Assembly: GCA_964645835.1 (NCBI GenBank)
Contig: CAZYDG010000043.1
Location: 9,063-73,062 of the forward strand
Reading direction: 5' to 3'
From: an uncultured Syntrophaceae bacterium
GTDB taxonomy: Bacteria; Desulfobacterota; Syntrophia; Syntrophales; UBA8958
Length of the DNA: 64,000 nt
Shown here: positions 39,443 through 57,594 of the stretch, in pieces
Layout of the letters: each line of letters starts with the position of its first letter
Numbering within the stretch: position 1 is the first letter of the stretch
The notes under the pieces: generated by a model
Told to the model about the DNA's origin: nothing
Database searches by the model: none
What the model saw: only the letters and a program-made list of their open reading frames with translations
Made by a program: the position numbers and the translations under genes

Positions 39443-39498
39443 TGTAACTCAGAGGGCGGAGCTGTATCTTGAAAGGGATCATGATTTTTCAGTGCTCT
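39443..39498 (+). promoter_or_regulatory. Conserved leader motif (ops/JUMPstart-like), T2SS-like operon copy
   Basis: TGTAACTCAGAGGGCGGAGCTGTATCTTGA (39443-39472) plus TTTTTCAGTGCTCT (39485-39498). Lies 25-80 nt upstream of the gspG ATG. Confidence 0.45.
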
Positions 39499-39522
39499 CG
39501 ATAAACCAAAGAGGTTGTTGAC

Positions 39523-39924
39523 ATGAAAGAGACAAAACAAAGACATAGGCAGGGGGGCTTCACACTTATTGAAATCCTGATCGTGGTCATTATCATCGGG
39601 CTCATTGCCTCTCTTGTGGCGCCGAACCTGATCGGCCGGTATGAACGGTCGAAGGAAGAAATTGCCAAGGCCCAGGTAGAAATGCTCTCGTCGGGCGTCA
39701 TGTCCTTTAAGCTGGATATGAACCGTTATCCGACCAGCTTTGATGAACTGGTTAAATCGACGGATGCGAAGTGGCGCGGCCCTTACCTTTCCAAGCAAAC
39801 CATCCCGCAAGACCCATGGGGGAGGGACTACGTATATAAAGTCCCCGGCGATCACGGGCCGTTTGATATCTATTCTCTGGGTGACAGCGGAAAACTGGAC
39901 GATAAATCGCCCAGGAACTGGTAA
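39523..39924 (+). CDS. gspG: Type II secretion major pseudopilin GspG
   Basis: 133 aa. Prepilin leader and cleavage site QGG/FTLIEILIVV. The C-terminus DPWGR.Y.Y..PG.HG.FD..SLG.DG is GspG-specific. Confidence 0.9.
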   Translation: MKETKQRHRQGGFTLIEILIVVIIIGLIASLVAPNLIGRYERSKEEIAKAQVEMLSSGVMSFKLDMNRYPTSFDELVKSTDAKWRGPYLSKQTIPQDPWGRDYVYKVPGDHGPFDIYSLGDSGKLDDKSPRNW

Positions 39925-39926
39925 GC

Positions 39927-41603
39927 ATGTCTTTCGAACAGATTTTAAAAGACAGCTACGGCGTCACGGAAGATGACTTCAACAAGGCGCTGAAGCTTCA
40001 AACCGAAATGGGCGGTCAGATTGGCCGCATCCTGGTCCAGGTCGGGTCTATTACGTATACCCAGTTGATGGAGGCGCTAGCTAAGAGCATGAATGTGCCA
40101 CTCTTTAGCGGCGACTGGGAACAGAACGGTGACTTGATCACCTTCCTCGATGGTCATCTAAACTATGGATATCTCCTGCGCAACAACGTTTTGCCTATCG
40201 GTATAGACCATGAACACAAGGTGTTATCTGTTGTAACCGACGATCCCTTCAATACATCCATTTCAGATTATATAGTAAACAATCTCGGCTACCGCGTGGC
40301 CATATCACTGGCGACGGAAGATACGATCAAGGACCTGTCCAAAGACTATACGGATGGACAAACGGGGGAATTCGTATCCCTCGAGTTTGAGGAAGATGCC
40401 GCGAAGCTCAAGGAGATGGCCTTTGAAGCCCCGGTGATCAAATTTCTCAATAATCTGATCAGTAAGGCAGTTGAAATCAGGGCTTCCGATATCCATCTGG
40501 AATCGTCGGAACGCAGATACCGTGTTCGCTTCAGGATCGACGGTATTCTCCAGGATATCGAATTTCTTGATGAGCAATTTTTCCTGGCAACCGTTTCGCG
40601 TATCAAACTCCTTGCCAGTCTCGATATCGCGGAAAAAAGATTGCCCCAGGATGGCAAATTTACGACCAAGATCGCTTCCCTGCTGTTGGATATCCGTGTT
40701 TCCACCATGCCCACCATCAGTGGCGGCGGCGTCGTGATGAGACTCCTGTATCGGGAGAAGATTTCTTTCGATCTTGAATACCTGGGGCTTGATGTGGATC
40801 ACAAGGAGTTGGTGGTCAACCTCATTTCACGTTCGTATGGCATGCTTCTCGTCACGGGTCCGACCGGTTCGGGCAAGACGACCACCCTCTATTCGATGCT
40901 TACGCGTTTGAACGATCCGGAACGAAAGATCATTACCATCGAGGACCCCGTCGAATATCAATTGGAAGGGATCAATCAGATCCAGACAAAAAGCGAGATC
41001 GGGCTCACATTTGCCAGCGCTCTGCGTTCCATCCTGAGACACGATCCCGATATTATCATGGTCGGCGAGATCCGGGACAGGGAAACGGCAGAAATATCCA
41101 TTCAGTCTGCTTTGACGGGACATTTCGTTTTTTCCACACTCCATACGAACGATGCACCGAGTAGTCTGTTTCGGCTCGTAGAAATGGGTGTGGCTGATTA
41201 TCTCCTCAATGCGGCGGTAGTCGGCGTGATGGCCCAACGAATCGTAAGAAAAAATTGCCCCTTTTGCCTGGAGCCGGAAGCCTTGCCCGACATCCTCTTG
41301 GAAGAATACGCCTTTAATGAGATTGTCGCTAAATATTCGAACCTTGCGCCGGAAGGATTGAAGGCAATGAAGGGAAAAGGGTGCTCAAAATGTGCGGGTA
41401 CGGGTTATAAAGGCCGAATCGCTATCTTTGAAATATTTGAATATAAGGAAGAACTCAAGCAGGTCTTTCTGAAGAGATTGTCCCTTGAGGATATGAGGGT
41501 CGCGTTGCATGCAGACGGTAATTATCGAACCCTCCGGGAAGACGGAATCCTTAAAGTGGCAAAGGGTCTGACGACACTGGAAGAGGTATTGCGCGTATGC
41601 TGA
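39927..41603 (+). CDS. gspE: GspE/PilB-family secretion ATPase
   Basis: 558 aa. Walker A VTGPTGSGKTTT, Asp/His boxes, and a tetracysteine CPFC...CSKCAGTG. Confidence 0.92.
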   Translation: MSFEQILKDSYGVTEDDFNKALKLQTEMGGQIGRILVQVGSITYTQLMEALAKSMNVPLFSGDWEQNGDLITFLDGHLNYGYLLRNNVLPIGIDHEHKVLSVVTDDPFNTSISDYIVNNLGYRVAISLATEDTIKDLSKDYTDGQTGEFVSLEFEEDAAKLKEMAFEAPVIKFLNNLISKAVEIRASDIHLESSERRYRVRFRIDGILQDIEFLDEQFFLATVSRIKLLASLDIAEKRLPQDGKFTTKIASLLLDIRVSTMPTISGGGVVMRLLYREKISFDLEYLGLDVDHKELVVNLISRSYGMLLVTGPTGSGKTTTLYSMLTRLNDPERKIITIEDPVEYQLEGINQIQTKSEIGLTFASALRSILRHDPDIIMVGEIRDRETAEISIQSALTGHFVFSTLHTNDAPSSLFRLVEMGVADYLLNAAVVGVMAQRIVRKNCPFCLEPEALPDILLEEYAFNEIVAKYSNLAPEGLKAMKGKGCSKCAGTGYKGRIAIFEIFEYKEELKQVFLKRLSLEDMRVALHADGNYRTLREDGILKVAKGLTTLEEVLRVC

Positions 41604-42802
41604 GCCTCTTTGCCTATAAGGCCCTGGATGCTTCCGGCCAGGAAAATAAAGGGACGATCAGTGCGGCAAATTCGTCCGAAGCGGTGCTGGCACTCAGGTC
41701 ACGGGGACTTGTTGTCATTGATCTCAACGAACGAAGAGAGATGACCAAGAAAGGGATTCGTTTTGCCAGGCGCTTCGGCCAACAGGACCTTTACAGTGTC
41801 GCCAGGGAATTGAGCACCCTGCTTCGATCCGGCATGCGGATCGACAAATCTCTTGAAATCTTGATCTCAGCAACATCGAAACAAGACCTGAAACAGGTTC
41901 TTGAAGGGATTTTGACGGATATAAAGGCCGGCCGGGATGTGGCTGAAGCCTTCGGACGAACGGGACGGTTCAGTTCTTTCCTGGTCAGCATGATCCACGT
42001 CGGCGAGGCCGTTGGGGCGCTTCAGCCCGCATTTGAAAATATCGCCCAATATCTTCGTTTCCAGATTCAGTTCAAATCGGAGATTCGGGGGGCGCTGACC
42101 TATCCAGTTTTTCTGATCTTTGCCAGTATCCTGACATTTGTAGTCATCTTCAATTTTATCGTTCCAAGATTTTTCAGCATCTTCGGTACGAACCTGACCA
42201 GCCTGCCCCTGCCGGCCAAAATTCTCTATACCTTAAGCGGGTGGTTGAGTTTCAGAAATATCGCCATTTGCCTGGCCGTGGCGGCACTCGTCGTATTTGC
42301 CAATAAAATGAATCCGACAAAATTCAAATTGCCCAACTGGTCCTCTTATCTGATCCGTATTCCCATGATGGGGAATCTCATTTTAAACCTGGAACTGTCG
42401 CGATTTTCCTATTCCATGTATTCTATCCTCTCGAGCGGTGTGACCTTTATTCAGGCACTAAGCTTGTCCGCTTCCCTGATACAGAATGAACATCTTCGGC
42501 ATCCGATAACATCCCTTGTCGGCCAGATCAAGGAAGGCAAGAAGATTTCCGATGTTTTCATGCAGGTCAATATACTTCCGGATATATACCCCAATATGAT
42601 AATGGTCGGCGAAGAGAGCGGCAACCTCAAAGATATCTTCTTTGAACTTTATCAGATTTTCGATGAGCGCTTCAAGAACAGCATCAAGATGGTTTTGACG
42701 CTTGTAGAGCCTATAATTATTCTGTTGATGGGACTACTCGTCGGCTTTATCGTCATTACGCTGATTCTGACCGTTATGAGCGTCAGCAGCATTAAATTGT
42801 AA
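41597..42802 (+). CDS. gspF: GspF/PilC-family inner-membrane platform protein
   Basis: 401 aa. Two repeated T2SSF-type domains and 3 TM segments. Overlaps the gspE stop. Confidence 0.9.
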   Translation: MLSLFAYKALDASGQENKGTISAANSSEAVLALRSRGLVVIDLNERREMTKKGIRFARRFGQQDLYSVARELSTLLRSGMRIDKSLEILISATSKQDLKQVLEGILTDIKAGRDVAEAFGRTGRFSSFLVSMIHVGEAVGALQPAFENIAQYLRFQIQFKSEIRGALTYPVFLIFASILTFVVIFNFIVPRFFSIFGTNLTSLPLPAKILYTLSGWLSFRNIAICLAVAALVVFANKMNPTKFKLPNWSSYLIRIPMMGNLILNLELSRFSYSMYSILSSGVTFIQALSLSASLIQNEHLRHPITSLVGQIKEGKKISDVFMQVNILPDIYPNMIMVGEESGNLKDIFFELYQIFDERFKNSIKMVLTLVEPIIILLMGLLVGFIVITLILTVMSVSSIKL

Positions 42803-42827
42803 AATAATCCCTATGATCGGGAGCAAG

Positions 42828-43229
42828 ATGACAGAGAAAGGGTTCAGTCTGATCGAACTGCTTTTGGTTGTCTCTATCATCGGGTTGATGTTTTCGGTTG
42901 CCCTTCCTGTTTCGTTCAATATGTACAGCAACTATAAGGCCTCAATTAAGGCCCAGGAAATAATGGTTTATACATCCGGTATACGGCGGGAAGCCTTTCT
43001 TTACAGCGAAAGAAAAGTGTTGTCTTCAAAAGACAATGTCATGACCGTGAACAGCGAGAAAAAGAATTTTGATAATGTAAAGGTGCAGATCAGCTCTCCC
43101 ATAGAATTCTTCCGAAATGGGACGACCAATGGGGGGATGATTAAGATCGTGGTCGATGACCAGATTTATCAATTGAATGTCCTACCTCCAGTGGGAGATC
43201 TTGCCCTTTCGAGAGGCGATGGCTCTTAA
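42828..43229 (+). CDS. Minor pseudopilin (GspH-like)
   Basis: Prepilin N-terminus MTEKG/FSLIELLLVVSIIGL. The ATG 42828 start follows GGGAG. The track start at 42813 lacks an RBS. Confidence 0.7.
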   Translation: MTEKGFSLIELLLVVSIIGLMFSVALPVSFNMYSNYKASIKAQEIMVYTSGIRREAFLYSERKVLSSKDNVMTVNSEKKNFDNVKVQISSPIEFFRNGTTNGGMIKIVVDDQIYQLNVLPPVGDLALSRGDGS

Positions 43230-43647
43230 CTCAAACGGCAGGAAGGGTTTTCTCGTCCTGGAGATTCTGATTGCCGGTCTTATCCTTACCTCGAGTATCG
43301 CGGCGACCATGTACATGTTTCATATGGGGAGCCTGTATCTTGATAAGGTGAATCAATCGAATATGCTGTCGTCAAAGCTTATTCAGGTAAGCAACATTTT
43401 CAAGGTTGTGCCCCTCGAAAACAGTTCGGGTACGGAAGACATGGGTGATGGGGTCCTCATGACATGGAAGTCGCAACTGATCTCATCGGCCAAACCACAG
43501 ATTGGCGAGGGTGAAGATGCCTTGCCTTCCCTGCATGAACTCATGCTGTACCTGGTGAGTTTTGATCTTGCCTATCAAGGCAATACAAGAAGCTATCAGA
43601 TCAATGTCTTTCGCTATAAACCATTGTCATCGGGGGAAACCGACTAG
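43219..43647 (+). CDS. Minor pseudopilin-like protein (GspI position)
   Basis: Start reset to ATG 43219, giving MALNSNGRKG/FLVLEILIAGLIL, with Glu at +5 after Gly-Phe. Confidence 0.55.
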   Translation: MALNSNGRKGFLVLEILIAGLILTSSIAATMYMFHMGSLYLDKVNQSNMLSSKLIQVSNIFKVVPLENSSGTEDMGDGVLMTWKSQLISSAKPQIGEGEDALPSLHELMLYLVSFDLAYQGNTRSYQINVFRYKPLSSGETD

Positions 43648-44299
43648 GGGCTATACCCTGGTTGAGGTCATGGTGGCTATGGTCATTCTGACGTCCATGC
43701 TGTTCCTGGGCGGCATGGCCATTAATCAAGGGCTCCGTCAGTACCATGGCCTCGTGGAGCAAGGCCTCAATTTCTGGGAATATGCAAAAACGCTATGGAT
43801 CGACAAGAGTTGCAACTCGGCAACGGACTATTACGTGTATACGAGAAGCGATGGATGGTTCCCCTACTTCAAAGGCGATCAGGAAGGGCTTTCGTTTGTC
43901 TCCTTGGCGCCTTTTGCAAACGATACGCCAGTTGCTATTTGGATAAGAAACGTTTCTGAAAAAGATGGATCTCGTTCGCTTGTATATTACGAATTGCCCG
44001 TTTATACGAAAACTTATGAAGATTTAGACCGGGACTATGTCTTCGGCGATTATAAAAAAGGAAGATCTTACAAGATTCTGGAAAATTTCAGCGCCATCGA
44101 ATTCAGCTTCTATGGTTATGATGTGCAGACAGGAAAAACCGTCTGGTCCAATCAATATGAGGGCAAGGCTATGAAACGGCTGCCTTCTTTAGTCAAAATT
44201 TCCTATCGGCATCACAAAACCGGCAAGGGGGTCTTGCTGTTAAGCATGAATGTTAATGCGCTCTTGAAAGCCGGTTATAATGAAGCCTATGTCAGATAG
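43604..44299 (+). CDS. Minor pseudopilin-like protein (GspJ position)
   Basis: Start reset to ATG 43604, giving ...KPTRG/YTLVEVMVAMVIL. About 230 aa, as for GspJ. Confidence 0.55.
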   Translation: MSFAINHCHRGKPTRGYTLVEVMVAMVILTSMLFLGGMAINQGLRQYHGLVEQGLNFWEYAKTLWIDKSCNSATDYYVYTRSDGWFPYFKGDQEGLSFVSLAPFANDTPVAIWIRNVSEKDGSRSLVYYELPVYTKTYEDLDRDYVFGDYKKGRSYKILENFSAIEFSFYGYDVQTGKTVWSNQYEGKAMKRLPSLVKISYRHHKTGKGVLLLSMNVNALLKAGYNEAYVR

Positions 44300-45218
44300 G
44301 CAAGGCTCCGTTACGATTTTGATTATGCTGATCGCCGCTGTTCTGATCACGGTGGGATTGGGATTCAACTGGTTGGTAAAAGAGCACGTCAGTTCTTCCG
44401 AGGGGTTAAAGAGCAAGGCTGAGGCAATTATCAAGGCCCGGTCGACTTTTGATACTGTTATCTTTTTGATCCTAACAGGCCGGGTACTGGCGAAAGAAGT
44501 GGCTACACCGGGGGGTGAATCTATCGCAGGGATAGTCACTCTGCCCCTTAACGGACAATTGGTAAAACTGGGGGAAGGAGTCAGTGTTCGAATTCAGGAG
44601 AGTAATGGTGCTATCTCCCTGTGGCATACAACCAGCCTAGAGAATAAAGCTGCTTTAGAGCGGTTGATTCAGCTATATGCCAAAGATCGCGACCATGATC
44701 AAAATCCTGCAGACAATTTATGGGACTGGATCGATGAGGATGATCTAGCCCGGACCAACGGTGCAGAAGCGGCTTATTATAAAGGAAAGGGATTGCATTA
44801 CGTGCCCAGGAATTATGCCCTCCAATCATTGGACGAACTTAAATTAATAAAAGGCTTTGACGAAAGCTTGCTTGACAAACTGGATAAAAGTTTGACTCTT
44901 CTACCCAAGACGGGTTTCAATCCGAATACGGCTTCGGACGATGTATTAATGGCCTATCTGAAATTTGACGAGCAAGCGATGAAGACTATGAAAGAGTATT
45001 TGGCCGATAAGCCAGTTTCATCGGATCGTGAGATGCTCTCTTTGACGGGGCAGAGCATTACAAAGGATGTGGATGCGATCTACTTTAGGCCATCACCCTA
45101 TATGGATGTGACAATTGATGTGGGAACACCTCGAAAAGTTTACAGTATCAAGGCCGGCTTGTTTATCGCCCAGAAAAAATACGCACCCTACAGTGTGTTA
45201 TCGTGGAAAGAGGAATAG
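44280..45218 (+). CDS. gspK: GspK-like pseudopilus tip protein
   Basis: 312 aa. N-terminal hydrophobic segment GSVTILIMLIAAVLI without Glu5. Contains DWIDEDD...NGAE..YY and L.S..EL.LIKG, hallmarks of T2SSK. Confidence 0.75.
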   Translation: MKPMSDRQGSVTILIMLIAAVLITVGLGFNWLVKEHVSSSEGLKSKAEAIIKARSTFDTVIFLILTGRVLAKEVATPGGESIAGIVTLPLNGQLVKLGEGVSVRIQESNGAISLWHTTSLENKAALERLIQLYAKDRDHDQNPADNLWDWIDEDDLARTNGAEAAYYKGKGLHYVPRNYALQSLDELKLIKGFDESLLDKLDKSLTLLPKTGFNPNTASDDVLMAYLKFDEQAMKTMKEYLADKPVSSDREMLSLTGQSITKDVDAIYFRPSPYMDVTIDVGTPRKVYSIKAGLFIAQKKYAPYSVLSWKEE

Positions 45219-45225
45219 GCGGGAT

Positions 45226-46428
45226 ATGGGGATGATGATTGCATACTGGGATAGGGAAAGACTTGATATTTACCGTATCGTCAACAAACGGCCGGTCAGA
45301 TTTGCAGCTGGAAGTCTCGACAAGCTAACTCCCGTTAGGAAGGTTGCCGATAAAAAGATCTTGATTATCGGCAGGGATCGTCTTGTTCACCTGAAAAAAA
45401 GATACCCCCCGGCGCCTGAAGAGACTTTGCGAAAGGCAGTCGATCTGGAAATCGGGGAACTGGTCCCGCTGACCCATCCGGCCTGTCATTGCCGAATCTT
45501 TGAATCATACGGCACCCATATCATGCTGGATATATGGGCATGGGAAACTGATCAATATGCCCGCCTGAATGAGGTTTTCCCTTTCAACGCTGTCGTTCCG
45601 GAGGATATTCTCTTTTCGTCTGCCAATCCTGAGATGTCGATTTATCATCATCAGGGTGCCGTTAATATGCTTGTTCACGGTCAAGGGAAATTCTTTGCCG
45701 GCGCTACGTTCCCCACGGAAACGTTCAGTCAGGGCGACATGGACCGGTTTATCGAAGGGCTCGCCCAGTACCGGGTCGATATAACAAAAATCAAGATATA
45801 TGGAACATTGCCTTTTTCGCTGGCTGGTCGACAACTTCCGGAAATCGCCAATGTTTCTGCTCCTGCGTATCCTCCATGTCTGGACTATTTTGATTTATTG
45901 GACCTGAAAAAGTTCCGCGTAAGGCGTGATTACCATTTTTTAGAGAAAAAAGATTTCATATTAAGACTCTTCATATATCTGATTCTAGGTTATGTCCTCA
46001 TGCTCTACCTTACCATGAGAAACTATGATGAAGTCTCCTCCGCCATCAAGTTGAAACTCAATCTTCTGGATCGGCAGGTATCGGCCTTGACGATAGACCG
46101 CGGTGAGACGGCAGACAGTCAAGATACCCTCGTCAAGGAACTCAATGAGAAGATATCCTCAAGGCAATCCGCCCTCTCCGCCATGACGGTATTGGCCCGG
46201 AGGCTTCCCAAGGGCAGTTTCGTTACACGAATGGTTTTCAATGGGAACAATACGGATATTTCTTTGTCTTCAAAAGAGCCCTTGGCTGTTCTTCGATTAT
46301 TGGGGAATGCACCGGAGATTAAAAAGGTCAGCATGAAGGGGCCGCCGGTTAAAGATCGAAGCACGGCTTCATACAATTTCAACATGACCATCGAGTTTAT
46401 CCGGTTGCCTGGTAGCGAGTCGATATGA
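45226..46428 (+). CDS. GspL-like assembly protein (PilM-like cytoplasmic domain + TM + PilN-like periplasmic domain)
   Basis: Start reset to ATG 45226, after the gspK stop. A single TM segment ILRLFIYLILGYVLMLYL lies at about residue 245. The call rests on architecture and position, not on recognised motifs. Confidence 0.45.
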   Translation: MGMMIAYWDRERLDIYRIVNKRPVRFAAGSLDKLTPVRKVADKKILIIGRDRLVHLKKRYPPAPEETLRKAVDLEIGELVPLTHPACHCRIFESYGTHIMLDIWAWETDQYARLNEVFPFNAVVPEDILFSSANPEMSIYHHQGAVNMLVHGQGKFFAGATFPTETFSQGDMDRFIEGLAQYRVDITKIKIYGTLPFSLAGRQLPEIANVSAPAYPPCLDYFDLLDLKKFRVRRDYHFLEKKDFILRLFIYLILGYVLMLYLTMRNYDEVSSAIKLKLNLLDRQVSALTIDRGETADSQDTLVKELNEKISSRQSALSAMTVLARRLPKGSFVTRMVFNGNNTDISLSSKEPLAVLRLLGNAPEIKKVSMKGPPVKDRSTASYNFNMTIEFIRLPGSESI

Positions 46429-46979
46429 TCAATATTATTCCCCAGAAAGATTTGAAGACCATCGGTATCTATCTTATCGTTGCTTTGGCGCTGATCCGAT
46501 TCCTGGTCTATCCCCTTTATGCATCCGTCGACGGGCGGAAGAAGAGCCTTGCCGAGCAATATGAAAACTATCAAGTTAAGGTTGCGCTACTCGAGAGGCA
46601 AATTGCGGAAAGGCAAAAAAATGAACATAATGCCAAGTCACCGGTCTCTGATCCCAAGGTGATCTTATCAAAATACTATGATAAGAATATCAAATTCCCT
46701 AATATCCAAGCGGATCTGATCGAATCGCTCATCAAAATATCCGAAAAGAAAGGTATGACCGTCATTGATTTCGAATTGTTGGAGCCGGTTGCAGGTCCAA
46801 ATATCAGCGAGATACCTGTGTTGATCAGGATCAGCGGTCAGTCGGGTGCTTTTGTGGACGTTCTCAGGGAGATAGAACGAAGTGACAAGGTCTTGGTGGT
46901 AAAATCGATGGAGATTAATAAAATTGGAGCGGAATTCCGCTTTTTCTTGACCTTGTCGTCTTTCCGGATAGAGAAATGA
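46425..46979 (+). CDS. GspM/PilO-like bitopic protein
   Basis: 184 aa with an N-terminal TM (IGIYLIVALALIRFLVY) followed by a coiled segment. ATGA start/stop overlaps on both sides. Confidence 0.45.
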   Translation: MINIIPQKDLKTIGIYLIVALALIRFLVYPLYASVDGRKKSLAEQYENYQVKVALLERQIAERQKNEHNAKSPVSDPKVILSKYYDKNIKFPNIQADLIESLIKISEKKGMTVIDFELLEPVAGPNISEIPVLIRISGQSGAFVDVLREIERSDKVLVVKSMEINKIGAEFRFFLTLSSFRIEK

Positions 46980-47713
46980 TTAAAAAGTTTTTACCGGATG
47001 TCTCGGGCCTTATATTCATCGCCGTTGTGGCCTTTCTTGTTGCAAGCAAGCCAGGTATCAATCTGACGGTAAAAGCAAAGGCTGTTCCGCAACAGATAAA
47101 GAACACTTCTGTTCCGGTTGCCGTGCCTCCAAAGAACATAGCGGTCTCATCGTCCTCATCGCCTCAGGAGGCGCTGCTTGAAAGGAATATTTTTGCCGAA
47201 AGCGGGAGCTATGCCATCGATGCCAAAGCAAAGCCGGTTTTGCCGGAAATCCCTTATCAGCTCATTGCCATTCTTAATGGAAAAGAAAACAAAGCGGTCT
47301 TCAGGGAGTATACCGGTGCCATTATCAACATGACCACGGGTAAAAAAATGATTGATGATTATGTTATCATTACGATAAATAATACGTCCGTTGAACTTCA
47401 AAGGGGGAAAGAAAAGAAGGGATTGCAATTGTTTAATGCCGCAGTCAGCCATCAACCGGCGAAGGCAATGGAACAGCATAAAAACAAGACTCTTTCTCCC
47501 GTAATATACACATTGATCGGCATCCTGGGTGGCCAGGAGAAAAAGGCCGTTTTGCGCAGTGCCAATGGAGTCGTTTCCATTATGCCGGTTGGGGGAATGC
47601 TCGGTGATGGTTCCGTTATTTCCGTTATTACGCCTCTTTCAGTGAAACTCAAGCAAGGGAAGAAAGAAACGGAGTTGAAAATGTTCGATGCCACCAGGAC
47701 GATGGGACGATGA
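46976..47713 (+). CDS. GspC/PilP-like protein with two tandem HR-like domains
   Basis: 245 aa with an N-terminal TM. There is an internal duplication: residues ~93-153 (YQLIAILNGKENKAVFRE...VELQRGKEKKGLQLF) versus ~177-237 (YTLIGILGGQEKKAVLRS...VKLKQGKKETELKMF). Confidence 0.5.
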   Translation: MIKKFLPDVSGLIFIAVVAFLVASKPGINLTVKAKAVPQQIKNTSVPVAVPPKNIAVSSSSSPQEALLERNIFAESGSYAIDAKAKPVLPEIPYQLIAILNGKENKAVFREYTGAIINMTTGKKMIDDYVIITINNTSVELQRGKEKKGLQLFNAAVSHQPAKAMEQHKNKTLSPVIYTLIGILGGQEKKAVLRSANGVVSIMPVGGMLGDGSVISVITPLSVKLKQGKKETELKMFDATRTMGR

Positions 47714-47717
47714 AAGT

Positions 47718-48944
47718 ATGCGTTATTTTGATAGTGTACCGATACTGATGGCCACCATTATGGCTATCATGTTGCTCACTGCAAGCAGCGCAGAATCGGC
47801 TGATGTGTACGTTTTTACCGATGGGGGGGAGACCACCTATTATACGAATATGCCTGGGCCGGGGCGTGTCAAGGTGAAATTGCCTCTTGTAAAACCTAAA
47901 GTCAAAGCAGTGGGATCAGCGCGTTCGGTGATAATTCGTGACCGGAAAGACTATGAACCTGTTATTACTGATGTGGAAAATAGGAGAAAAAAAGTAGCGA
48001 ATATTGTTTTTTCATTTTACATTCGAAGGATTTTTAGAATTATCCCAGCTGCAATTTTTTGTATAGTTATTTCCCTATCTTTGTCCTGGGTATCTGGTCA
48101 GGGATCAGTTTTTGGGAACATGGATATCAATCTGACCTCAGTTTTTTCGATTCTTACATTGCATTATAATATTTTGCTGGCTTTGGATTGGCCTAGCCGT
48201 ATCCATTGGCAAACCTTTGGTTTTTTTTGGAGTTTAATGGTTGAAGAACAGTTTTATCTGCTCTTTCCATTTCTTCTATTGGCTTTTCGAACCGTGCAGA
48301 AGAAAGTAGCTATCTTGACGATCCTATTGCTACTAGCACTAGTGCTACAAATCATTGTCGGAATGCACAACAACGTTATATTGTATAAATTATTTCGTTT
48401 CGATGGATTAATGATTGGCGTTTTGTTGTATTTTTTTACTAAGAGCAGATTTTATCAAGCATTTGATATCTTTAAGTTTAAAAATACATTTACGTCTCTT
48501 ACCTATAACCTGATGTTGCTGAGCCTTTTACTTTTTGTCCAAGGCATGCATGAAATTTCCTTCCATCCATTTTTGTCCGCAATTCTTTCTGGTGTTTTTG
48601 TGCTTGCTGCAACGTATCAGCATGATAGCATTTTCCCTCTAAAGCCGTTCGCGTCGATGCTGACTTGGGCCGGTAACAGGTCTTATAGTCTATATTTGCT
48701 TCATAGCCTTGCACTTAGCATTACTGTGACCTTATGGGATTTTTATGCACATCAGGTTGGAAAGGTTTTGGGTTCCGGGGATGAAATTATGATGGCTTTG
48801 ACTTCTATTATTATTATTCTAATCTTGGTTGAGTTTTCTTACAGGGTTATTGAGCGTCCGTTGATAAAATTTGGCAAGTTTGTTTCCGATAGAGTGGAGT
48901 CACCAGTAAGTGTTTCGCTAGCGATGCACAGACCTTTCCCTTAG
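47718..48944 (+). pseudogene. Chimeric ORF: DUF4124/lytic-transglycosylase N-terminus fused to an N-terminally truncated acyltransferase-3
   Basis: Residues 1-85 give a signal peptide, ADVYVFTDGGETTYYTN (DUF4124-like) and RDRKDYEPVITD. From about residue 98, FYIRRIFRIIPAAIF and 7-8 TM segments belong to acyltransferase_3, but the first part carrying the conserved His/FFxxSG is missing. There is a sharp shift to A/T-rich sequence at about 47970. Confidence 0.5.
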
Positions 48945-49147
48945 GCCATCCGACTTGGATAGTGGGTCGTATATTTTAAAATGCAGGGGCAGAAAAAAAT
49001 TAGCGGGTGATCAGTGGCGAAAGATTGCATTGCTATATAGAGATTGTTTCCTCAATGTTGTATGAGATTATCGATTTGAGTTCCTTATTTTAGGGTCATT
49101 CTTGACAGAAATAGGGATGAGATTATGCAAAGGAGAAATTTTAATAA

Positions 49148-50047
49148 ATGATGACATTATCAAAAACAACATCCATGAAAGGCATCATACTCGCGGGTGG
49201 TTCGGGCACAAGGCTTTATCCAATAACATCATCCGTATCAAAGCAGCTTCTTCCCGTTTTTGACAAACCCATGATTTACTATCCCCTGTCTATCCTGATG
49301 CTGGCCGGGATTCGGCAGATTCTCATCATATCAACGCCCCGGGATTTGCCTTTTTACAAGGAATTATTCAATGATGGCAACCACCTGGGGTTGTCAATTT
49401 CCTACGCTGAACAACCCCATCCCGGTGGTTTGGCCCAGGCGTTCATTATTGGCGACTCCTTCATCGGAAAGGACAATGTCTGTCTGGTTTTGGGAGACAA
49501 TATCTTCCATGGCTATGGCCTGTCGGCGTTGCTGGAGAAGGCGGGCGCCCTTTCAGACGGCGCCCTTGTCTTCGGTTATTGGGTGAAAGACCCGGAACGC
49601 TACGGTGTTGTGTCTTTTGATGAACAAGGGAAGGCGGAGAGTCTGGAAGAAAAACCGGCAAAGCCAAAGTCCAATTATGCCGTGGTCGGCCTTTATTTTT
49701 ATGATAACGACGTGATTGAAGTTGCGAAAAATCTTAAGCCTTCCGCCCGTGGCGAACTGGAGATTACAGATGTCAACAAGGAATATCTGAAGCGGGGCAA
49801 ACTGCAGGTCGAGATCCTGGGCCGCGGTATGGCATGGTTGGATACGGGCACCCATGAAAGCCTTCTGGAAGCGGGCAATTTCATAGCCACTATCGAACAC
49901 CGCCAAGGGCTCAAAGTCGCCTGCCTGGAAGAAATTGCCTACAGTAAGGGCTACATCACGAAGAAGCAATTGCTTGCCCTGGCAGAACCTCTGGCAAAAA
50001 ACCAATATGGTGAATACCTGATCGGTCTTGTTGAGCATAAACGATAA
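49148..50047 (+). CDS. rfbA: Glucose-1-phosphate thymidylyltransferase
   Basis: Contains [18 protein letters not shown]....[23 protein letters not shown]. The start is either 49148 or 49175. Confidence 0.92.
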
Positions 50048-50054
50048 CCCTTGG

Positions 50055-51037
50055 GTGCATGTGGTAACAGTCGTCATCGTCAACTGGAATGGCCTGAAAT
50101 TTATTTCTGAATGTCTGGATGGCCTTCAGCGGCAAGCCTTCCAGCCCTTTTCAGTGATAATGGTTGACAATGCTTCCCAGGATGGGTCCGTAGATTTAGT
50201 CAAAAAAACTATCCCGATGTTCGGGTCATTGCTTTAAATACTAATGTCGGATTTGCTGCGGCCAATAATGTCGCCCTTCGGTCCGTCGAAACTCCTTATG
50301 TTGCACTTCTGAACAATGATGCCGTTCCCGATCCTCAGTGGCTGCAACGACTGGTGGATGCCTTGGAGACCCATCCCGAAGCAGGCTTTGCCGCCTCGAA
50401 GATGCTTTTTTATGACACACCGGATATCATCGATCGGGCCGGTGATGCATATACCACAGCAGGAACGGCCCTTCTAAAGGGAAGAGGATGCTCGGCTGAG
50501 GATTATAGCTGTCGCGCCTGGGTCTTTGGTGCCTGTGCGGGCGCGGCGCTATATCGGATGGCCATGCTTTGGGATACGGGGCTCTTCGAAGAAGACTTTT
50601 TCCTGCTTTATGAGGATGTGGATCTGAGTTTCCGGGCCCAACTCAAAGGATATAAATGCTTGTATGTGCCGGAGGCAAAGGTCCATCACAAGGGGAGCGG
50701 CAGTATCGTCCACGATTCGCCCATATCGGTGTACTATAGCCATCGGAACCTGGAGTGGGTTTACATCCGGAACATGCCCGGCGGGTTGATTGTCCGGTCC
50801 ATGTTTTCCCATTTTATCTATGACTTTGTTGCCTTTGTTTATTTTGTGATGAGTGGACGGGGTGTTGATTTTATGCGGGCGAAGCGTGATGCCGTGAAGG
50901 GCTTAAGGCAGGCCTGGCAGGATCGAAAGCGCATTCAGGCTGGTAAGATTGTTACCGATGAGTACATATGGAGGTTGTTGGAAAGGCCCATGCTGTTTAG
51001 TCGTTTGATGAACCGTTTCGGGATGCTGAAATTCTGA
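50055..51037 (+). pseudogene. Glycosyltransferase family 2, reading frame broken at an A7 tract
   Basis: Frame 0 (VTVVIVNWNG...VDNASQDGSVDLVKK) stops at 50235-50237. The continuation NYPDVRVIALNTNVGFAAANN...YEDVDLSFR is in the -1 frame, starting inside AAAAAAA at 50202-50208. Confidence 0.8.
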
Positions 51038-51124: not shown

Positions 51125-52123
51125 ATGCAAGTTATTAGGTCTGTCAGTCAAAAAGTGGTATGCGGTGTTGTGATTGCCGTTTGGGTTTCATGTTTTCTCT
51201 TGGTAGGATTAGCCGGGATAAATGAAGCTGCAGCCGGAAATCAATCCCCTGCTTTAAGTGTCCAAGGCCGGATTCGTGTGTCCGGGGCGTGGGCTCTATA
51301 CCCTATGATGGTCAAATGGGCGGAAGAATTCAAGAAGGTGAACCCGAAAGTGCGGATTGACATTTCAGCGGGAGGCGCCGGCAAAGGCGTCGTCGATGCC
51401 CTTTCGGGATTGGTCGATATCGGGATGGTTTCCCGGGAGATAAGGCAGGAAGAAGCGAGACAGAAGGCATTTTATATTCCCGTGGTCAAGGATGCCGTTT
51501 TTCCCACAATCAACCAGAACAACCCTGTCCTTGCGGAACTGATGAAAAAGGGCCTCAAGAAAAAAGCCTTTGTCGATCTGTGGATCAGCGGTCGTCCTAT
51601 GACGTGGGGTGAGTTGGCCGGTGTGGTGAGTCCGCAGAAGGTCCGGGTTTATACGCGGTCCGATTCATGCGGGGCTGCTGAAACGTGGGCGAAGTATCTG
51701 GGGAAACAGCAGGAGGACCTGGGCGGTGTCGCCGTATACGGTGATCCCGGTGTTGCCGAAGCGGTCAGAAAGGATGTGTCGGGCATCGGGTTTAACAATC
51801 TCAACTATGCCTATGATATGAAAACGGGGAGGCCCGTACCGGGGATTCAGATTGTGCCCATCGACGCCAATGAAAATGGCAAGATTGATCCTTCGGAACG
51901 GCTGCGAACAAAGCAGGAGGCGATTCACGCTGTCGTTTCCGGTGTTTACCCGTCGCCGCCTGCGAGAGACCTGTATCTTGTGTCGAAGGAATCCTTTAAA
52001 GGGTCTGCCAAGGAGTTTGTCCGCTGGATTTTGACGTCTGGTCAAAAATATGTTGAAGATGTCGGCTACTTACGGATCAGTCCCGTACAGCTAAAAAGCG
52101 CACTGAACAAAATGGGGCGTTAA
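51125..52123 (+). CDS. pstS: PstS-family phosphate ABC transporter substrate-binding protein
   Basis: 332 aa with a signal/TM N-terminus. Contains SGAWALYPMM.KWAEEF.K.NP.V.I...AGGAGKG, a PBP-like-2 pattern. Confidence 0.8.
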   Translation: MQVIRSVSQKVVCGVVIAVWVSCFLLVGLAGINEAAAGNQSPALSVQGRIRVSGAWALYPMMVKWAEEFKKVNPKVRIDISAGGAGKGVVDALSGLVDIGMVSREIRQEEARQKAFYIPVVKDAVFPTINQNNPVLAELMKKGLKKKAFVDLWISGRPMTWGELAGVVSPQKVRVYTRSDSCGAAETWAKYLGKQQEDLGGVAVYGDPGVAEAVRKDVSGIGFNNLNYAYDMKTGRPVPGIQIVPIDANENGKIDPSERLRTKQEAIHAVVSGVYPSPPARDLYLVSKESFKGSAKEFVRWILTSGQKYVEDVGYLRISPVQLKSALNKMGR

Positions 52124-52138
52124 AGAGAATGCGGAGTA

Positions 52139-53059
52139 TTGGATAAGAGAAACGCAATGAACTACGGGCTTCGGAGAAGGCAGTACAAAGAATGCTTTGC
52201 CTGGTTGACGATGCGCGGAAGCGTCATCTTCGTCCATGCCCTGGCCTTTATAATCTTTATTGGTCTTGTTGTAAAATCGGAGCCGATCCTATCGCGAACA
52301 TCTCTGTCCGAATTGTTATTTTCTTCCGTCTGGCATCCTCTGAAGGGGGTTTATGGCCTGTTTCCCTTCATTATAAGCACGGTGGAAGTAACGGCCATGG
52401 CCATGGCCATTTCCATTCCCGTCTGCCTTCTCTGTGCGATCTATCTTTCGGAATATGCCGGTTGCCGGTTTCGGGAGTCGGTCTGACTCATCATCGATAT
52501 TTTGGCCGGAATCCCATCGGTGGTCTACGGCCTCTGCGGTGTCCTGGTCATCGTTCCTTTCGTAAGAATGCTGGGGGAATTTCTGGGGAAACTCACGACG
52601 GGCTATAGCCTGCTTTCGGGCGGTTTGATCCTTGCCGTGATGGTGACTCCTTTTGTCATTTCGGTGTCCGTGGAGGTCTTGCGCATGGTTCCGGATCAGG
52701 TCCGGGAGAGCGCCCTGGCCCTGGGAGCCACGAAATGGGAAACGGTCAAGCATGTGGTACTGAAAAAGGCCCGTCGAGGGCTGATCGCCGCCGTTGTGCT
52801 GGGCTTTGCCCGCGCCTTCGGCGAGACCATGGCCGTGCTTATGGTCGTGGGAAATGTGGCCGAGGTGCCGTCTTCGATCTTTGACCCGGCCTATCCCCTG
52901 CCTGCCCTTATCGCCAATAATTATGGAGAGGTTATGTCCATTCCCCTATATGATTCGGCTCTCATGTCGGCGGCCCTCATCTTGATGGTTTTGGTGGCCC
53001 TCTTCAGCCTGACGGCCCATTATACCCTTTTGACGACGGGAGGCCGATGGGAAGAATGA
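52139..53059 (+). pseudogene. pstC: pstC permease interrupted by one in-frame TGA
   Basis: The two track ORFs 52139..52486 and 52502..53059 share one frame. Read across TGA 52484-52486 they give ...[29 protein letters not shown], which is continuous PstC sequence. The start is uncertain (TTG 52139 or ATG 52157). Confidence 0.75.
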
Positions 53060-53904
53060 CTTCCAGAAAACTGGAAGAGTATCTGTTTAAATGCCTCATG
53101 GCTACGGCACTTTTTTTAGTCCTGTCGAGTCTGGTGGGAATTGTCGTCGTCGTAGCCGTCAAAGGCTTTTCCGCCATAAATCTGTCCATGATCCTTGAGA
53201 CACCCCAGGGCGGTTACTATCTCGGCAAGGAGGGGGGCATTGCCAATGCCATCGTAGGTTCCCTTTACCTTGTAGCCGGATCGATCGTGATGGCCATGAT
53301 GATCAGCCTTCCCGTCGCCCTGGCCCTGCAAAAGGACTATACGTCCAAACGCCTTGCCGATGTGACACGCCTGACGCTGGATATCCTCTGGGGCACACCC
53401 TCCATCGTTTACGGTATCTTTGGCTTTGTCGTGATGGTCTACTTCGGATTGCGGGCATCCCTTCTTGGCGGAATGATCGTCCTGACTCTTCTAATAATCC
53501 CCATCATGATCAGGGCCATGGATGAGGCCATCCGCATGGTTCCGTTCGAACTTAAAGAGATCTCTTACGGCCTTGGGGCGACAAAGATCGAAACGACGCT
53601 GACCGTGGTTCTCAGACAGGCTTTTCCCGGGATATGCACGGCCATCATCCTGGCCTTCGGTCGCGGGATCGGAGATGCCGCCTCGATCCTTTTCACCGCA
53701 GGATATACGGATGAAATTCCCACCTCTTTGCTGGATCCAGTAGCATCGCTCCCGCTTGCCGTTTTCTTTCAGGCCGGGACCGCCGTGCCGGAAGTCCAGG
53801 AACGGGCCTATGCGGCGGCCCTGATCCTGATTTTGATCATTCTGGCTGTCAACATCCTCTCCCGGCTTCTCGGGTGGCGTTTTTCGAGGCATATCGTTAG
53901 GTAG
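53047..53904 (+). CDS. pstA: Phosphate ABC transporter permease PstA
   Basis: 285 aa with 6 TM segments. EAA-like loop [23 protein letters not shown]. Confidence 0.85.
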
Positions 53905-53913
53905 CCACCGCTT

Positions 53914-54756
53914 ATGTCGAACATCCATTTAAAGCAATTGACTGTTTCCTACGGAAGTCATCAGGTGATCCGGGATATTACCCTGGATTTGCCCGAACGG
54001 CGCATCATCGCCATTATCGGCCCGTCCGGGTGCGGAAAGACAACACTTCTGAAGAGCATCAACCGCCTCCTTGATCTCAACGAGGATGTCCGTGTGGAAG
54101 GTGATATCTGCATCGACGGGATGAGCATTTACAGCAACGGTACAGATGTTATCGACTTGCGAAAGAAGGTCGGCTTTTTGTCCCAAAGGCCTTATCCCCT
54201 GCCCATGTCCATCTACGACAATGTTGCCTTTGGCCCCAGGATTCATAAACTCGATGTCGACTGTACTCTTCGGCGGCTATCGGAACATGAAACATTCCAT
54301 CATACCTTTGACGAATGCCTGGCGGGAAAATCGCCGGATCGAAGAAAGGGGAAAGGCATGGCCCTCCTTGTCGAATACTATCTTCGCCTGGCGGGGCTCT
54401 GGGGGGAGGTTAAGGATAGGCTTCACGCGCCGGCATCAAAACTCTCCATTGGGCAACAGCAGCGCCTGGCCCTGGCGAGGGTTCTAGCCATCGAGCCCGA
54501 GGTGATCCTCGCCGACGAGCCGACATCGGCCCTCGATCCCATTTCGGCCAAACTTGTCGAAGCACGGTTCAAACTCCTGAAACAGGATTATACCATTATT
54601 GTGGTGACCCATATCCTTCGCCAGGCGCGCCGCCTTGCAGATTATATCGTTTTCCTGTACATGGGGGATCTGGTGGAGCACGGACCGTCGGAACAGTTCT
54701 TCGGCGATCCGCAAGATGAAAAAACCCGCGCCTATATTAGCGGAGAAATAAGCTGA
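53914..54756 (+). CDS. pstB: Phosphate ABC transporter ATP-binding protein PstB (divergent)
   Basis: Walker [17 protein letters not shown], a LSIGQQQRL signature, and Walker B ILADEP. Carries an insertion of about 30 aa relative to E. coli PstB (from memory). Confidence 0.8.
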
Positions 54757-54757
54757 C

Positions 54758-55681
54758 ATGAGTTCTTTTTCCATATCGTTTTTGAGACAACTCGAATCGG
54801 AATCCATTCACATCATGCGGGAAGTGGCGGGAGAGTTTAAGAATCCCGTCATGCTCTATTCCGTAGGCAAGGATTCCAGCGTCATGGTGCGTCTTGCCCA
54901 GAAGGCCTTCTATCCGGGGAAATTTCCTTTTCCCCTCATGCATATAGATACGGGTTATAAATTTCCCGAGATGTACGACTTTCGGGAGGCCTTTTGCCGC
55001 CAGATCGGTGCTGAATTGATCGTCGAGCGAAACGAGGATTGGATCGCCCAAGGCTGCCACCCGGCCCATATGGGAGTCGATAAGTGTTGCAGTTATCTCA
55101 AAACGGGGGCCCTGGTTGAATCTTTACGCAGGCATGGTTTCGACGCGGCGTTCGGCGGGGCAAGGCGGGAAGAGGAGAAATCACGCGCCAAGGAACGAGT
55201 TTTTTCACTGAGAGATGCTTTTGGTCAATGGGACCCGAAAAACCAGCGACCAGAGCTCTGGGATCTCTACAACACACGGATCAACGAGGGTGAGACGGTG
55301 CGCGTTTTCCCCTTGAGCAACTGGACGGAACAGGATATCTGGCAGTACATCAAACTGGAGAATATCCCCATCGTACCCATCTATTATGCACGTGAACGGG
55401 ATGTGATCGTTCGTAACGGTATTTTGATCCCCCGTTCGCTTTCTTCCGTAGCCGGTCCAGGCGGTGATATCGTGGGTGAAGAAAGAATCGAACGCGTCAT
55501 GTGCCGTTTCCGAAGCTTGGGCTGCATTCCCTGTACAGGAGCCATCGCCTCCAATGCGACGACTATCGACGAGATTATCGGGGAAGTGCGGTCTGCAACG
55601 AAGTCGGAACGGGAAAACCGCGTAATTGACCTGACGAGCGACAGTTCGATGGAGCAGAAAAAGAAAGAGGGGTATTTCTGA
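54758..55681 (+). CDS. cysD: Sulfate adenylyltransferase subunit 2
   Basis: 307 aa. Contains [12 protein letters not shown]...NPVMLYS.GKDSSVM..LA.KAF. Confidence 0.93.
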
Positions 55682-57594
55682 TGCTATACGGCGAAAAATC
55701 CCTCCTGCGCTTCACGACGACAGGCAGTGTCGATGACGGGAAATCGACGCTTATCGGCCGGCTCCTCTACGAGACGAAATCCATCTATGAGGACCAGTAC
55801 GCGGCTATAGAGAAGACGTCCAAGCGTAAAGGATACAAGGATGTTGATCTGGCCTATCTCCTCGACGGTCTGGCGGCTGAAAGGGAGCAGGGCATCACGA
55901 TCGATGTGGCCCACCGGTATTTTGAGACGCCGAAGCGAAAGTTCATCATCACAGACACGCCCGGCCATGTTCAATATACGCGAAACATGGTGACGGGGGC
56001 ATCCAACGCCGATTGCGCCATCATTCTTATTGACGCCCGAAACGGTGTGCTGACCCAGTCCAAACGGCACGGATTTATTATTTCCCTGTTGCAGATTCCA
56101 CATCTGATCGTGGCTGTCAACAAGATGGACCTTGTCGATTACAATGAGGACGTCTTTGCCCGTATCGTCGGAGAATACGAAAATTATTCACAGAAGCTTG
56201 ATATTGACGATATCGTCTTTATCCCCGTCTCAGCCCTGAAGGGTGACAACGTTGTGGAAAAGAGCGGCAAGATGGCCTGGTACGACGGCCCGACACTCCT
56301 CCATTATCTGGAGAACATCCATATTTCCGCCAATCGGAACCTGGTGGATTTCCGTTTTCCCGTTCAGTACGTCATCCGGCCCCATCTCAATTTTCGGGGA
56401 TTTGCCGGAAAGATTGCGTCCGGTACAATCATGCCGGGAGAAGAAATCACCGTTTTGCCTTCTGGAAAATCAGCCACAGTTAAGGCAATCACTACTTACG
56501 ACGGCCTGCTGTCCGAAGCCTTTGCCCCCCAGTCTGTGGTCTTGTCGTTGAATGAAGAGATTGATGTCAGCCGTGGAGACATGATCGTCAGGAAAAAGAA
56601 TCTTCCTCATGCAGGGAACCGGCTGGAAGCAATCATCTGCTGGATGGACGAAGCGGCGTCCAACATGACGACGCCGTACATCATGAAACACACAACACGG
56701 TATGTGAAGGCATATATCAGCAAAATCATCTACAAAATTGATGTCAACACCCTCCATCGGGAACAGGCGGACTCCTTCGATCTCAACGAGATCGGGCGGG
56801 TGGAAATCAGCACCGCAAACTCTGTTTTTTTTGATCCCTATAAAATCAATCGCGCGACGGGAAGCTTCATCCTGATCGATCCAGTGACAAACAATACCGT
56901 TGCGGGAGGCATGATCCGGGGAGTTCCCAGGTCGATCAGCGACGTCCCCGGTGAAAGAGCCGAAGACGACGGGAGCGGGGTAAAATCTCCCCATATTGTT
57001 TGGCATGGATTGAACATCCCCCGAGAGCAAAGAGAAGCTCGAAACAATCACAAGGCTGCCGTCTTATGGTTAACGGGATATTCCGGGTCTGGTAAAACGA
57101 CCATTTCCAAGTGTTTGGAACAAAAACTTTTTGAGCTCGGGTGCCGGACAATGCTCCTGGATGGAGATCATTTAAGGCATGGTCTTTGCGGCGATCTCGG
57201 CTTTTCCGAGGAGGCCCGCCGGGAGAATATCCGCCGGGCGGGGGAAGTGGCCCGGCTGTTTTTTGAGTCGGGTGATGTGGTGATCTGTACCTTTATTTCA
57301 CCATTTATGAGGGACCGGCAGAGGGTTCGATCTCTTCTCCCTCCCTTGCGGTTTTATGAAATCTATGTCAAATGCGATCTCAATGTATGCAAAAGGCGCG
57401 ATCCCCACGGACTGTATCAAAAGGCCATAGCCGGGGAAATCGGCGAATTTACCGGTATCAGCTCTCCCTACGAAGAACCGCTGCATCCCGAGATGGTTGT
57501 TGAGACGGATATCCAAAGCGTTGAACAGATTGTCGACGCTATCCTTGAAAGGCTCTACGAGGATGCAGTGGTCAAGAACCCAAATATTTTTTGA
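55681..57594 (+). CDS. cysNC: Bifunctional sulfate adenylyltransferase subunit 1 / adenylylsulfate kinase
   Basis: 637 aa. GTPase motifs GSVDDGKSTLIGRLL, DTPGH and NKMD. The C-terminal APS-kinase P-loop is LTGYSGSGKTT. The ATG overlaps the cysD stop. Confidence 0.93.
   Translation: MLYGEKSLLRFTTTGSVDDGKSTLIGRLLYETKSIYEDQYAAIEKTSKRKGYKDVDLAYLLDGLAAEREQGITIDVAHRYFETPKRKFIITDTPGHVQYTRNMVTGASNADCAIILIDARNGVLTQSKRHGFIISLLQIPHLIVAVNKMDLVDYNEDVFARIVGEYENYSQKLDIDDIVFIPVSALKGDNVVEKSGKMAWYDGPTLLHYLENIHISANRNLVDFRFPVQYVIRPHLNFRGFAGKIASGTIMPGEEITVLPSGKSATVKAITTYDGLLSEAFAPQSVVLSLNEEIDVSRGDMIVRKKNLPHAGNRLEAIICWMDEAASNMTTPYIMKHTTRYVKAYISKIIYKIDVNTLHREQADSFDLNEIGRVEISTANSVFFDPYKINRATGSFILIDPVTNNTVAGGMIRGVPRSISDVPGERAEDDGSGVKSPHIVWHGLNIPREQREARNNHKAAVLWLTGYSGSGKTTISKCLEQKLFELGCRTMLLDGDHLRHGLCGDLGFSEEARRENIRRAGEVARLFFESGDVVICTFISPFMRDRQRVRSLLPPLRFYEIYVKCDLNVCKRRDPHGLYQKAIAGEIGEFTGISSPYEEPLHPEMVVETDIQSVEQIVDAILERLYEDAVVKNPNIF

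Follow-up and report, generated by a model that had tools for sequence, protein, structure and literature searches.

The open reading frame (ORF) that follows the T2SS-like operon of Ca. Syntrophus pelomyxae is a chimera, in which the front of a DUF4124-SLT lytic transglycosylase gene is joined to the back of an acyltransferase-3 (AT3) gene. We consider it most probable, at roughly three chances in four, that this is a real and recent scar of illegitimate recombination in the genome of this symbiont, and that the fused ORF is a non-functional relic. The parts of the ORF, the motifs that it misses, and the compositional block lie where they do far beyond chance. The features concerned are collected in Table 1; "the window" refers throughout to the whole stretch of DNA that was analysed, 64 kb in length. 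The exact protein encoded by the chimeric ORF occurs on one contig only, JARLUC010000001.1 (914,784 bp) of assembly GCA_030920355.1. An earlier note, made from the letters of the window, had already proposed that a recombination or insertion event fused a truncated DUF4124-SLT gene to a 5'-truncated AT3 gene, a proposal that is supported here by the gene order in related loci and by the singleton architecture of the protein.

Table 1. Features of the window at and around the junction
Feature	Position	Strand	Basis or remark
T2SS-like operon: gspG, gspE, gspF, three pseudopilin-like genes, gspK, gspL-like, gspM, gspC-like	39523..47713	+	Pfam and NCBIfam
Chimeric ORF, 408 aa	47718..48944	+	GenBank: hypothetical protein CSYNP_00054, Syntrophus sp. 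SKADARSKE-3
5' remnant of the operon's DUF4124-SLT lytic transglycosylase gene	47718..47972	+	Orthologue alignments
Junction zone, aa 86-96 (VENRRKKVANI)	47973..48005	+	SLT-gene homology over, Pfam AT3 match not begun
3' three-quarters of the AT3 gene, RXXR to C-terminus	48006..48944	+	PF01757
Low-GC spacer, chimeric ORF to rmlA	48945..49147		GC 0.365; same compositional block

The two parts of the chimeric gene

The single ORF extends from 47688 to 48944 and has a second ATG at 47718. Translation likely starts at the latter, because it lies 5 nt past the gspC stop, as in the related locus L001, and because the orthologue alignments begin at residues 4-7. The comparison draws on eight related T2SS-like loci (L001, L002, L003, L009, L010, L012, L013, and L014), collected by a GspF genome scan and by look-ups of GspC-like homologues; L011 is a shorter second contig carrying the genes of L010.

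The remnant of the transglycosylase gene consists of a signal-peptide-like hydrophobic segment (aa 7-25, from hydropathy), a DUF4124-like stretch 'ADVYVFTDGGETTYYTN..GRVKVKLPL', and a linker leading to 'YEPVITD' (D85). Its Pfam match to DUF4124 (PF13511) at residues 18-62 is sub-threshold (14.2 bits, E 0.054, gathering score 22); the orthologues of L001 and L012 pass the threshold over the aligned stretch with 26.1 and 24.7 bits, and so do P0145 and P0147. Residues 6-86 can be aligned to the DUF4124-SLT products of the gene after gspC in L001, L010, L012, L013, and L014. Identity is 41-47% for L001, L010, and L012 (tblastn, E 1e-12 to 6e-11) and 44% and 39% for L013 and L014, respectively (blastp, E 1.4e-17 and 2e-08). 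The earlier view that the first ca. 85 residues are a DUF4124-SLT N-terminus is thus borne out by orthology in five operons, at 39-47% identity over about 73-86 residues. The DUF4124-SLT (PF13511 and PF01464) transglycosylases of T2SS-like operons (e.g., L001 11634-12272 and L012 10724-11362) occupy the same site as the ORF, 5 nt after the gspC-like stop, and share with it the signal peptide, the module 'ADVY.F.D..G..Y.TN.PG..RVKV.LPL', and the 'YEP.I' linker. Each orthologue comparison loses the homology at 'YEPVIT(D)' (nt 47969-47975), where the relatives go on into their SLT catalytic block '..VDPDL.RAVIK.ESNF..'. All five orthologues (202-212 aa) carry the SLT domain PF01464; the ORF differs from them in lacking this catalytic domain of about 125 residues, including the 'ES' motif of the catalytic Glu, and has no Pfam match to PF01464. 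Nor did tblastn with the relatives' proteins find a remnant of the SLT domain (orthologue residues ~88 onward) anywhere in the 64-kb window. Aligning the ORF to its relatives, as had been suggested, accordingly recovers an intact SLT gene after gspC in five loci and places the junction at about nt 47972.

The remainder of the ORF belongs to the AT3 family. Residues 97-369 match PF01757 from profile position 68 to 319 of 326 (E 1e-12, 48.3 bits, gathering score 31). The RXXR motif (R104 and R107; nt 48027-48038) lies at the start of TMH3. In AT3 topology as described, TMH3 is where RXXR is found, and the loop between TMH3 and TMH4 faces the periplasm (PMC7448272). When aligned with ten AT3 homologues, the ORF retains every later invariant column (F100, R104, R107, P110, W171-Y180, R321-H329, and E372-E379). 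The same alignment shows no counterpart in the ORF for TMH1 with its R/K-X10-H motif or for TMH2 (GVDLFFxISG): the homologues have about 85-95 residues ahead of their FWxRRxxRxxP motif, and the ORF has unrelated sequence there. Hydropathy likewise gives one hydrophobic segment before TMH3 in the ORF (that of aa 7-25) against two in the homologues. The profile match from position 68 and the ten-homologue alignment agree with the earlier description of an AT3 body that begins at its RXXR motif, with the first helices and the conserved His missing. These are no minor losses, for AT3 proteins as a group conserve the R/K-X10-H motif of TMH1, which is invariant in the characterised AT3 enzymes, and in OafA the TMH1 substitutions R14A and H25A leave less than 1% of the activity (PMC7448272). 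Stand-alone ten-helix O-acyltransferases (PF01757) such as Oac, as well as the AT3 domain of OafA, have RXXR, WSLxxEEQFY, RSYSLYLxH, and the C-terminal ExxYRxxExP in common with the ORF. In the latter, however, TMH1 and TMH2 are replaced by an unrelated exported N-terminus, and its nearest listed homologue is 30% identical.

The missing front of the AT3 gene was sought elsewhere in the window. The AT3 N-terminal matches at 17606-17896 on the minus strand were ruled out as the missing piece, being part of a separate and complete AT3 gene at 16883-17935 (350 aa, full-length PF01757, GC 0.424), which is the only other AT3 match in the window; no 5' fragment of the chimeric gene's AT3 part was found. 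The idea of a T2SS block that had landed within an AT3 gene, whose 5' end would then lie at 39124-39522, was likewise dropped, as the N-terminal 110 aa of 58 AT3 homologues gave no tblastn match in that interval.

The base composition changes at the same place as the homology. The AT3 part has a GC content of 0.372 and a GC3 of 0.378, against 0.46-0.52 and 0.50-0.63 in neighbouring genes. It lies in a block from about 47950 to about 49180 with a GC content of 0.37, versus a mean of 0.50, that forms the lowest-GC kilobase of the window; across the 64 kb only 0.16% of 975-bp windows are as low as the AT3 part, and the minimum starts at 47926. Maximum-likelihood GC change points fall at 47946 (support 47865-48001) and 49181 (support 49159-49303), so that the left edge of the block coincides with the break in homology and the right edge falls on the start of rmlA (49148) or just within this gene. 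An A/T-rich stretch from about 47970 to 49147 had been noticed by eye in the sequence; the change points place its ends close to those positions, and windowed GC and GC3 agree. The junction zone contains an A7 run, and a weak terminator-like hairpin is present in the spacer at 48951-48969.

No relative shares this architecture. Among the 120 matches listed for the whole protein in a search of 5.8 billion clustered proteins there were, besides the protein itself, AT3 proteins only, with at most 30% identity (up to 40% over short stretches); those that span the AT3 body extend over about 75% of the ORF, and none of the listed matches other than self covers more than 84% of it or carries its N-terminal part. 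When 1.84 billion representatives were searched exhaustively with HMMER for matches to residues 1-90, six proteins came back: the protein itself, two repeat proteins, and three SLT proteins of 217-264 aa. The repeat proteins (P0143 and P0144, with Kelch or bacterial Ig-like Big repeats) were set aside as repeat-driven false positives. The DUF4124-AT3 architecture is therefore a singleton among 1.84 billion representative proteins, and there is no fusion family. Had homologues of the same architecture been widespread, the ORF could have been read as a genuine fusion; no such protein was found, and the recombination reading stands.

The end of the T2SS-like operon

Upstream of the chimeric ORF the genes from gspG to gspC are intact ORFs with lengths matching those of their relatives, and they are colinear with L001-L003. 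As in type II secretion systems and in secretin-dependent pilus-like machines, GspG, GspE, GspF, minor pseudopilins, GspK, a GspL-like protein, GspM, and a GspC-like protein are present. The window operon is colinear with those of Syntrophales and Nitrospirae metagenome-assembled genomes, yet it is without the GspD that closes all eight related loci. There, gspD (682-734 aa) stands directly after gspC in L002, L003, and L009, and after gspC-SLT in L001, L010, L012, L013, and L014; the final gene of L013, which the contig end truncates, still shows 63-65% identity to GspD. Searching the 64-kb window by tblastn with GspD from six relatives yielded no remnant. From these arrangements, the ancestral operon would have ended in gspM, gspC-like, DUF4124-SLT, and gspD, and the present one appears to have lost its dedicated outer-membrane channel. 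The loss of an SLT domain, and conceivably of gspD, had been anticipated in the earlier note; gspD occurs in eight out of eight related loci and neither gene part is left in the window.

Even the nearest relatives are only distant, at 57% identity for the GspC-like protein and 44% for the N-terminus of the SLT protein. The sequence downstream of gspD in L001, L002, L009, L010, and L012 has no match to the window, and the relatives therefore do not show where the lost segment ended on its right-hand side.

In their gene table, the authors of the genome list a different secretin, CSYNP_02537, elsewhere in the genome and three genes away from another gspG-like gene, CSYNP_02540. It is conceivable that a secretin-less T2SS-like machine still works here, either with this other secretin or as a device of the periplasm or the inner membrane, with the ORF as a new membrane-anchored accessory protein; we regard this as very unlikely. 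If true, it would catch a secretion system, as is rarely seen, while being rewired in the move to intracellular life.

Origin of the junction

On either side of the junction stand genes of a single large surface-polysaccharide locus. Upstream, there are genes for glycosyltransferases, Wzy, Wzx, two DegT aminotransferases, and a C-methyltransferase, a carbamoyltransferase-like gene, and the complete AT3 gene; downstream lie rmlA, a GT2 gene, genes for sulfate uptake and sulfate activation, a GT4 gene, and rmlD. An AT3 gene beside rmlA is therefore natural in this setting, and the join is not one between unrelated regions. The locus also holds an intact low-GC gene for a hexapeptide acetyltransferase (37453-38148, GC 0.374). 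Ahead of gspG, the order GT2-GT2-HTH is conserved in L001 and GT2-HTH in L012, but here, compared with both, an 8.5-kb block of sugar genes stands between the HTH regulator and gspG.

We favour a single deletion over a replacement as the source of the chimera. Before the event, a complete low-GC AT3 O-acyltransferase gene would have stood downstream of gspD, just ahead of rmlA. One non-homologous event would then have joined codon ~85 of the SLT gene in frame to codon ~85-95 of the AT3 gene. It would have removed the SLT catalytic domain (~0.38 kb), gspD (~2.1-2.2 kb), the DNA between gspD and the AT3 gene, and the 5' end of the latter with TMH1 and TMH2 (~0.26 kb), in total at least ~2.9 kb. 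Relaxed selection in the host cytosol may have allowed the event, and the ORF would since be translated, if at all, from the start of the SLT gene just after gspC. A single deletion is the simplest account because intact low-GC acyltransferase genes elsewhere in the locus make a complete AT3 gene by rmlA plausible. The event is evolutionarily recent, since both halves are free of stops and keep all their conserved residues and since the other ten genes of the operon are intact. The product of the fused ORF is most likely non-functional, to judge from its predicted features: it has no transglycosylase domain and lacks the essential R/K-X10-H motif, and its membrane orientation would be flipped, as a single segment instead of two before TMH3 should leave the remaining helices inverted in the membrane. 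On the other side of the balance, a 325-codon AT-rich frame that is perfectly preserved is also what one would expect under selection or with an artificial junction. In addition, the AT3 body has no listed homologue above 30% identity and a GC content far from that of its neighbours, and it may have arrived already truncated on imported DNA.

The latter thought leads to a different route to the same end, which we hold to be possible though rather unlikely: an imported low-GC fragment, with the 3' part of an AT3 gene and the spacer, displaced the 3' end of the SLT gene together with gspD. This would still leave a real scar and a dead ORF. One option for such a replacement is homology-facilitated illegitimate recombination: the conserved rmlA would provide the anchor on the right, and on the left an illegitimate join would fall within the SLT gene. 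The sharp edges of the lowest-GC kilobase, the right one at or just inside rmlA, would suit it, as would an AT3 body without a relative above 30% identity among the matches listed from 5.8 billion proteins, and the mosaic nature of the locus, with its 8.5-kb sugar-gene insertion relative to L001 and L012 and the low-GC gene at 37453-38148. Against this, a replacement needs two junctions where a single deletion suffices with one, and the intact acyltransferase genes of low GC (0.374, and 0.424 for 16883-17935) belong to the same locus. A 14/15-nt direct repeat brackets the block (47985-47999 and 48991-49005) and could be taken for a trace of recombination, but an A-rich repeat of 15 nt is within chance expectation in such sequence and was not retained as one. 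For the block itself, a mobile-element origin was looked for without a match to plasmid DNA or phage proteins and without IS-like inverted repeats, and no integrase, IS, or other mobile-element trace was seen near it.

Whether by deletion or by replacement, the scar presupposes that the junction exists in the organism, and it is known from a single assembly. Ca. Syntrophus pelomyxae lives as an endosymbiont in the cytosol of Pelomyxa schiedti, an anaerobic amoeba, and its genome was assembled with SPAdes from MDA-amplified single-cell libraries into 84 scaffolds (4.97 Mb, 49.9% GC, 7.4% estimated contamination) (PMC10579272). An MDA chimera or a SPAdes mis-join that left out the intervening DNA or linked two separate regions, with an accidental reading frame and a real genome that holds intact slt-gspD and AT3 genes, would also account for an ORF seen on one contig only and for two halves as pristine as if nothing had happened in vivo, and a one-base homopolymer frameshift 1.1 kb downstream might be a sign of poor local sequence. 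We nevertheless deem such an artefact improbable. The window has no long repeat at the junction that could mislead an assembler, the junction is found 57 kb into a contig of 915 kb, and its flanks come from the same polysaccharide locus; moreover, a join is in frame by accident only one time in three, and individual MDA chimeras are rarely fixed in consensus assemblies. Less probable still, and hardly to be credited, is a functional new fusion in which the signal peptide and the DUF4124 module anchor or export an eight-helix AT3-derived membrane domain with a new role. In its favour, 408 codons of AT-rich DNA form an uninterrupted frame, no conserved AT3 residue past TMH2 has been lost, and the start follows the gspC stop by 5 nt in an operon that is expressed: in the upper part of the authors' expression table, gspG has a value of 829, gspE 205, and gspK 209, with rmlA at 166. 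Yet the architecture is a singleton and hence shows no sign of selection, residues essential for AT3 catalysis are missing, and, with an odd number of helices ahead of it, the AT3 body should be inverted. CSYNP_00054 is also absent from that table down to values of about 60, which is weak evidence, since three intact operon genes, gspF, gspM, and gspC (CSYNP_00046, CSYNP_00052, and CSYNP_00053), are absent from it as well.

Probable genome decay in a recently host-restricted symbiont

The chimeric gene is a case of ordinary genome decay and reveals neither a new protein family nor a new mechanism. That deletions leave chimeric ORFs and pseudogenes behind is a general phenomenon in host-restricted bacteria. 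What is found here resembles such decay in the in-frame join of two fragments, the loss of an envelope and secretion function, the frameshifted neighbour, and the intracellular life of an IS-rich symbiont; it differs in that this genome remains large, at 4.97 Mb, with the other operon genes undamaged and the operon expressed, so that the lesion appears early and isolated. For the scar read as a real deletion, the case is a dated and clean one of an early envelope and secretion lesion in a recently host-restricted, IS-rich, still large symbiont genome. In practical terms, CSYNP_00054 should be annotated as a chimeric pseudogene rather than as a hypothetical protein or an acyltransferase, and reconstructions of Ca. 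Syntrophus pelomyxae should score its T2SS-like operon as lacking its secretin. The main text of the genome paper mentions neither type II secretion nor pseudogenes (PMC10579272).

Some further observations concern the surroundings of the gene and its host. The symbiont genome is rich in IS elements. The broken gene 1.1 kb downstream of the chimeric ORF, the second in this region, owes its state to a one-base frameshift in an A7 run. By the upper part of the expression table, the major pseudopilin gene is one of those that the symbiont expresses rather well within its host.

Genes in and around the T2SS-like operon

The gene for a lytic transglycosylase (SLT gene) lies between gspC and gspD in five of the eight related T2SS-like loci (L001, L010, L012, L013, and L014) and is missing there from the other three (L002, L003, and L009), a distribution which makes the dedicated lytic transglycosylase an optional accessory in operons of this kind. 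The genes ahead of the operon were compared with those in L001 (from a Syntrophales MAG) and L012. In all three, the operon is preceded by one or more genes for family 2 glycosyltransferases (GT2) and a small winged-helix regulator. Nitrospirae MAGs also carry the T2SS-like operon, with 51–55% identity in GspF. This arrangement may reflect a conserved link of the machine, be it a pilus or a secretion system, to the synthesis of polysaccharides. In L001 and L012 gspG directly follows the regulator, whereas in the window the two are separated by a block of sugar genes encoding: a DegT aminotransferase; a C-methyltransferase; an epimerase/reductase; a Wzx flippase; a GT2; a low-GC hexapeptide acetyltransferase; and a second GT2. 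This difference in gene order marks the block as an insertion specific to the lineage of the window.

Features in the window and, where stated, in related loci
Feature	Position	Strand	Remarks
ORF, 640 aa	14960-16882	-	adjoins complete AT3 gene
Complete AT3 acyltransferase, 350 aa	16883-17935	-	full-length PF01757 match; separate from AT3 remnant
GT2 and winged-helix regulator region	28502-30985 (L001, 290-3004; L012, 595-2024)		precedes T2SS-like operon
Deoxysugar and polysaccharide gene block, 8.5 kb	31111-39123	+	between HTH regulator (30596-30985) and gspG (39523)
Direct repeat, 14/15 nt, AGAAAAAAAGTAGCG / AGAAAAAAATTAGCG	47985-47999 and 48991-49005		brackets AT3 remnant
GT2 gene, frameshifted	50028-51037	+	after rmlA
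Phosphate/sulfate-type ABC transporter and sulfate-activation genes	51125-57594	+	inside polysaccharide locus

The acyltransferase remnant and possibly disrupted genes

One copy of the direct repeat around the acyltransferase-3 (AT3) remnant is situated just inside the left junction, the other 47 nt past the stop codon of the chimeric ORF. The repeat is probably due to chance in A-rich DNA; if the low-GC AT3 block was imported, it is possibly a recombination footprint. Downstream of rmlA, the first ca. 60 residues of the GT2 are encoded in one frame (to about 50216) and the remainder in the next (from about 50201). The frame breaks at an A7 run (50203-50209), to which the addition of one A would restore the reading '..VKKNYPDVRVIALNTNVGFAAANN..', and GenBank lists only the 675-bp 3' part of the gene (CSYNP_00056). 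The frameshift could mean that the gene is a true pseudogene or that the site is prone to slippage, or it could stem from an error in sequencing. One permease gene of the phosphate/sulfate-type ABC transporter (ca. 52192-53059), which appears as two overlapping ORFs, may also be disrupted.

Phosphate/sulfate-type transporter and polysaccharide decoration

The ABC transporter consists of a periplasmic binding protein, two permeases, and an ATPase, and is followed by CysD-like and CysN/CysC-like sulfate-activation genes. Because these genes and a phosphate/sulfate-type transporter lie inside the polysaccharide locus, its surface polysaccharide may be sulfated. Given the complete AT3 gene and the adjoining 640-aa ORF, which by its appearance we take to encode a putative carbamoyltransferase, the locus thus codes for several polysaccharide-decorating enzymes besides the broken AT3.
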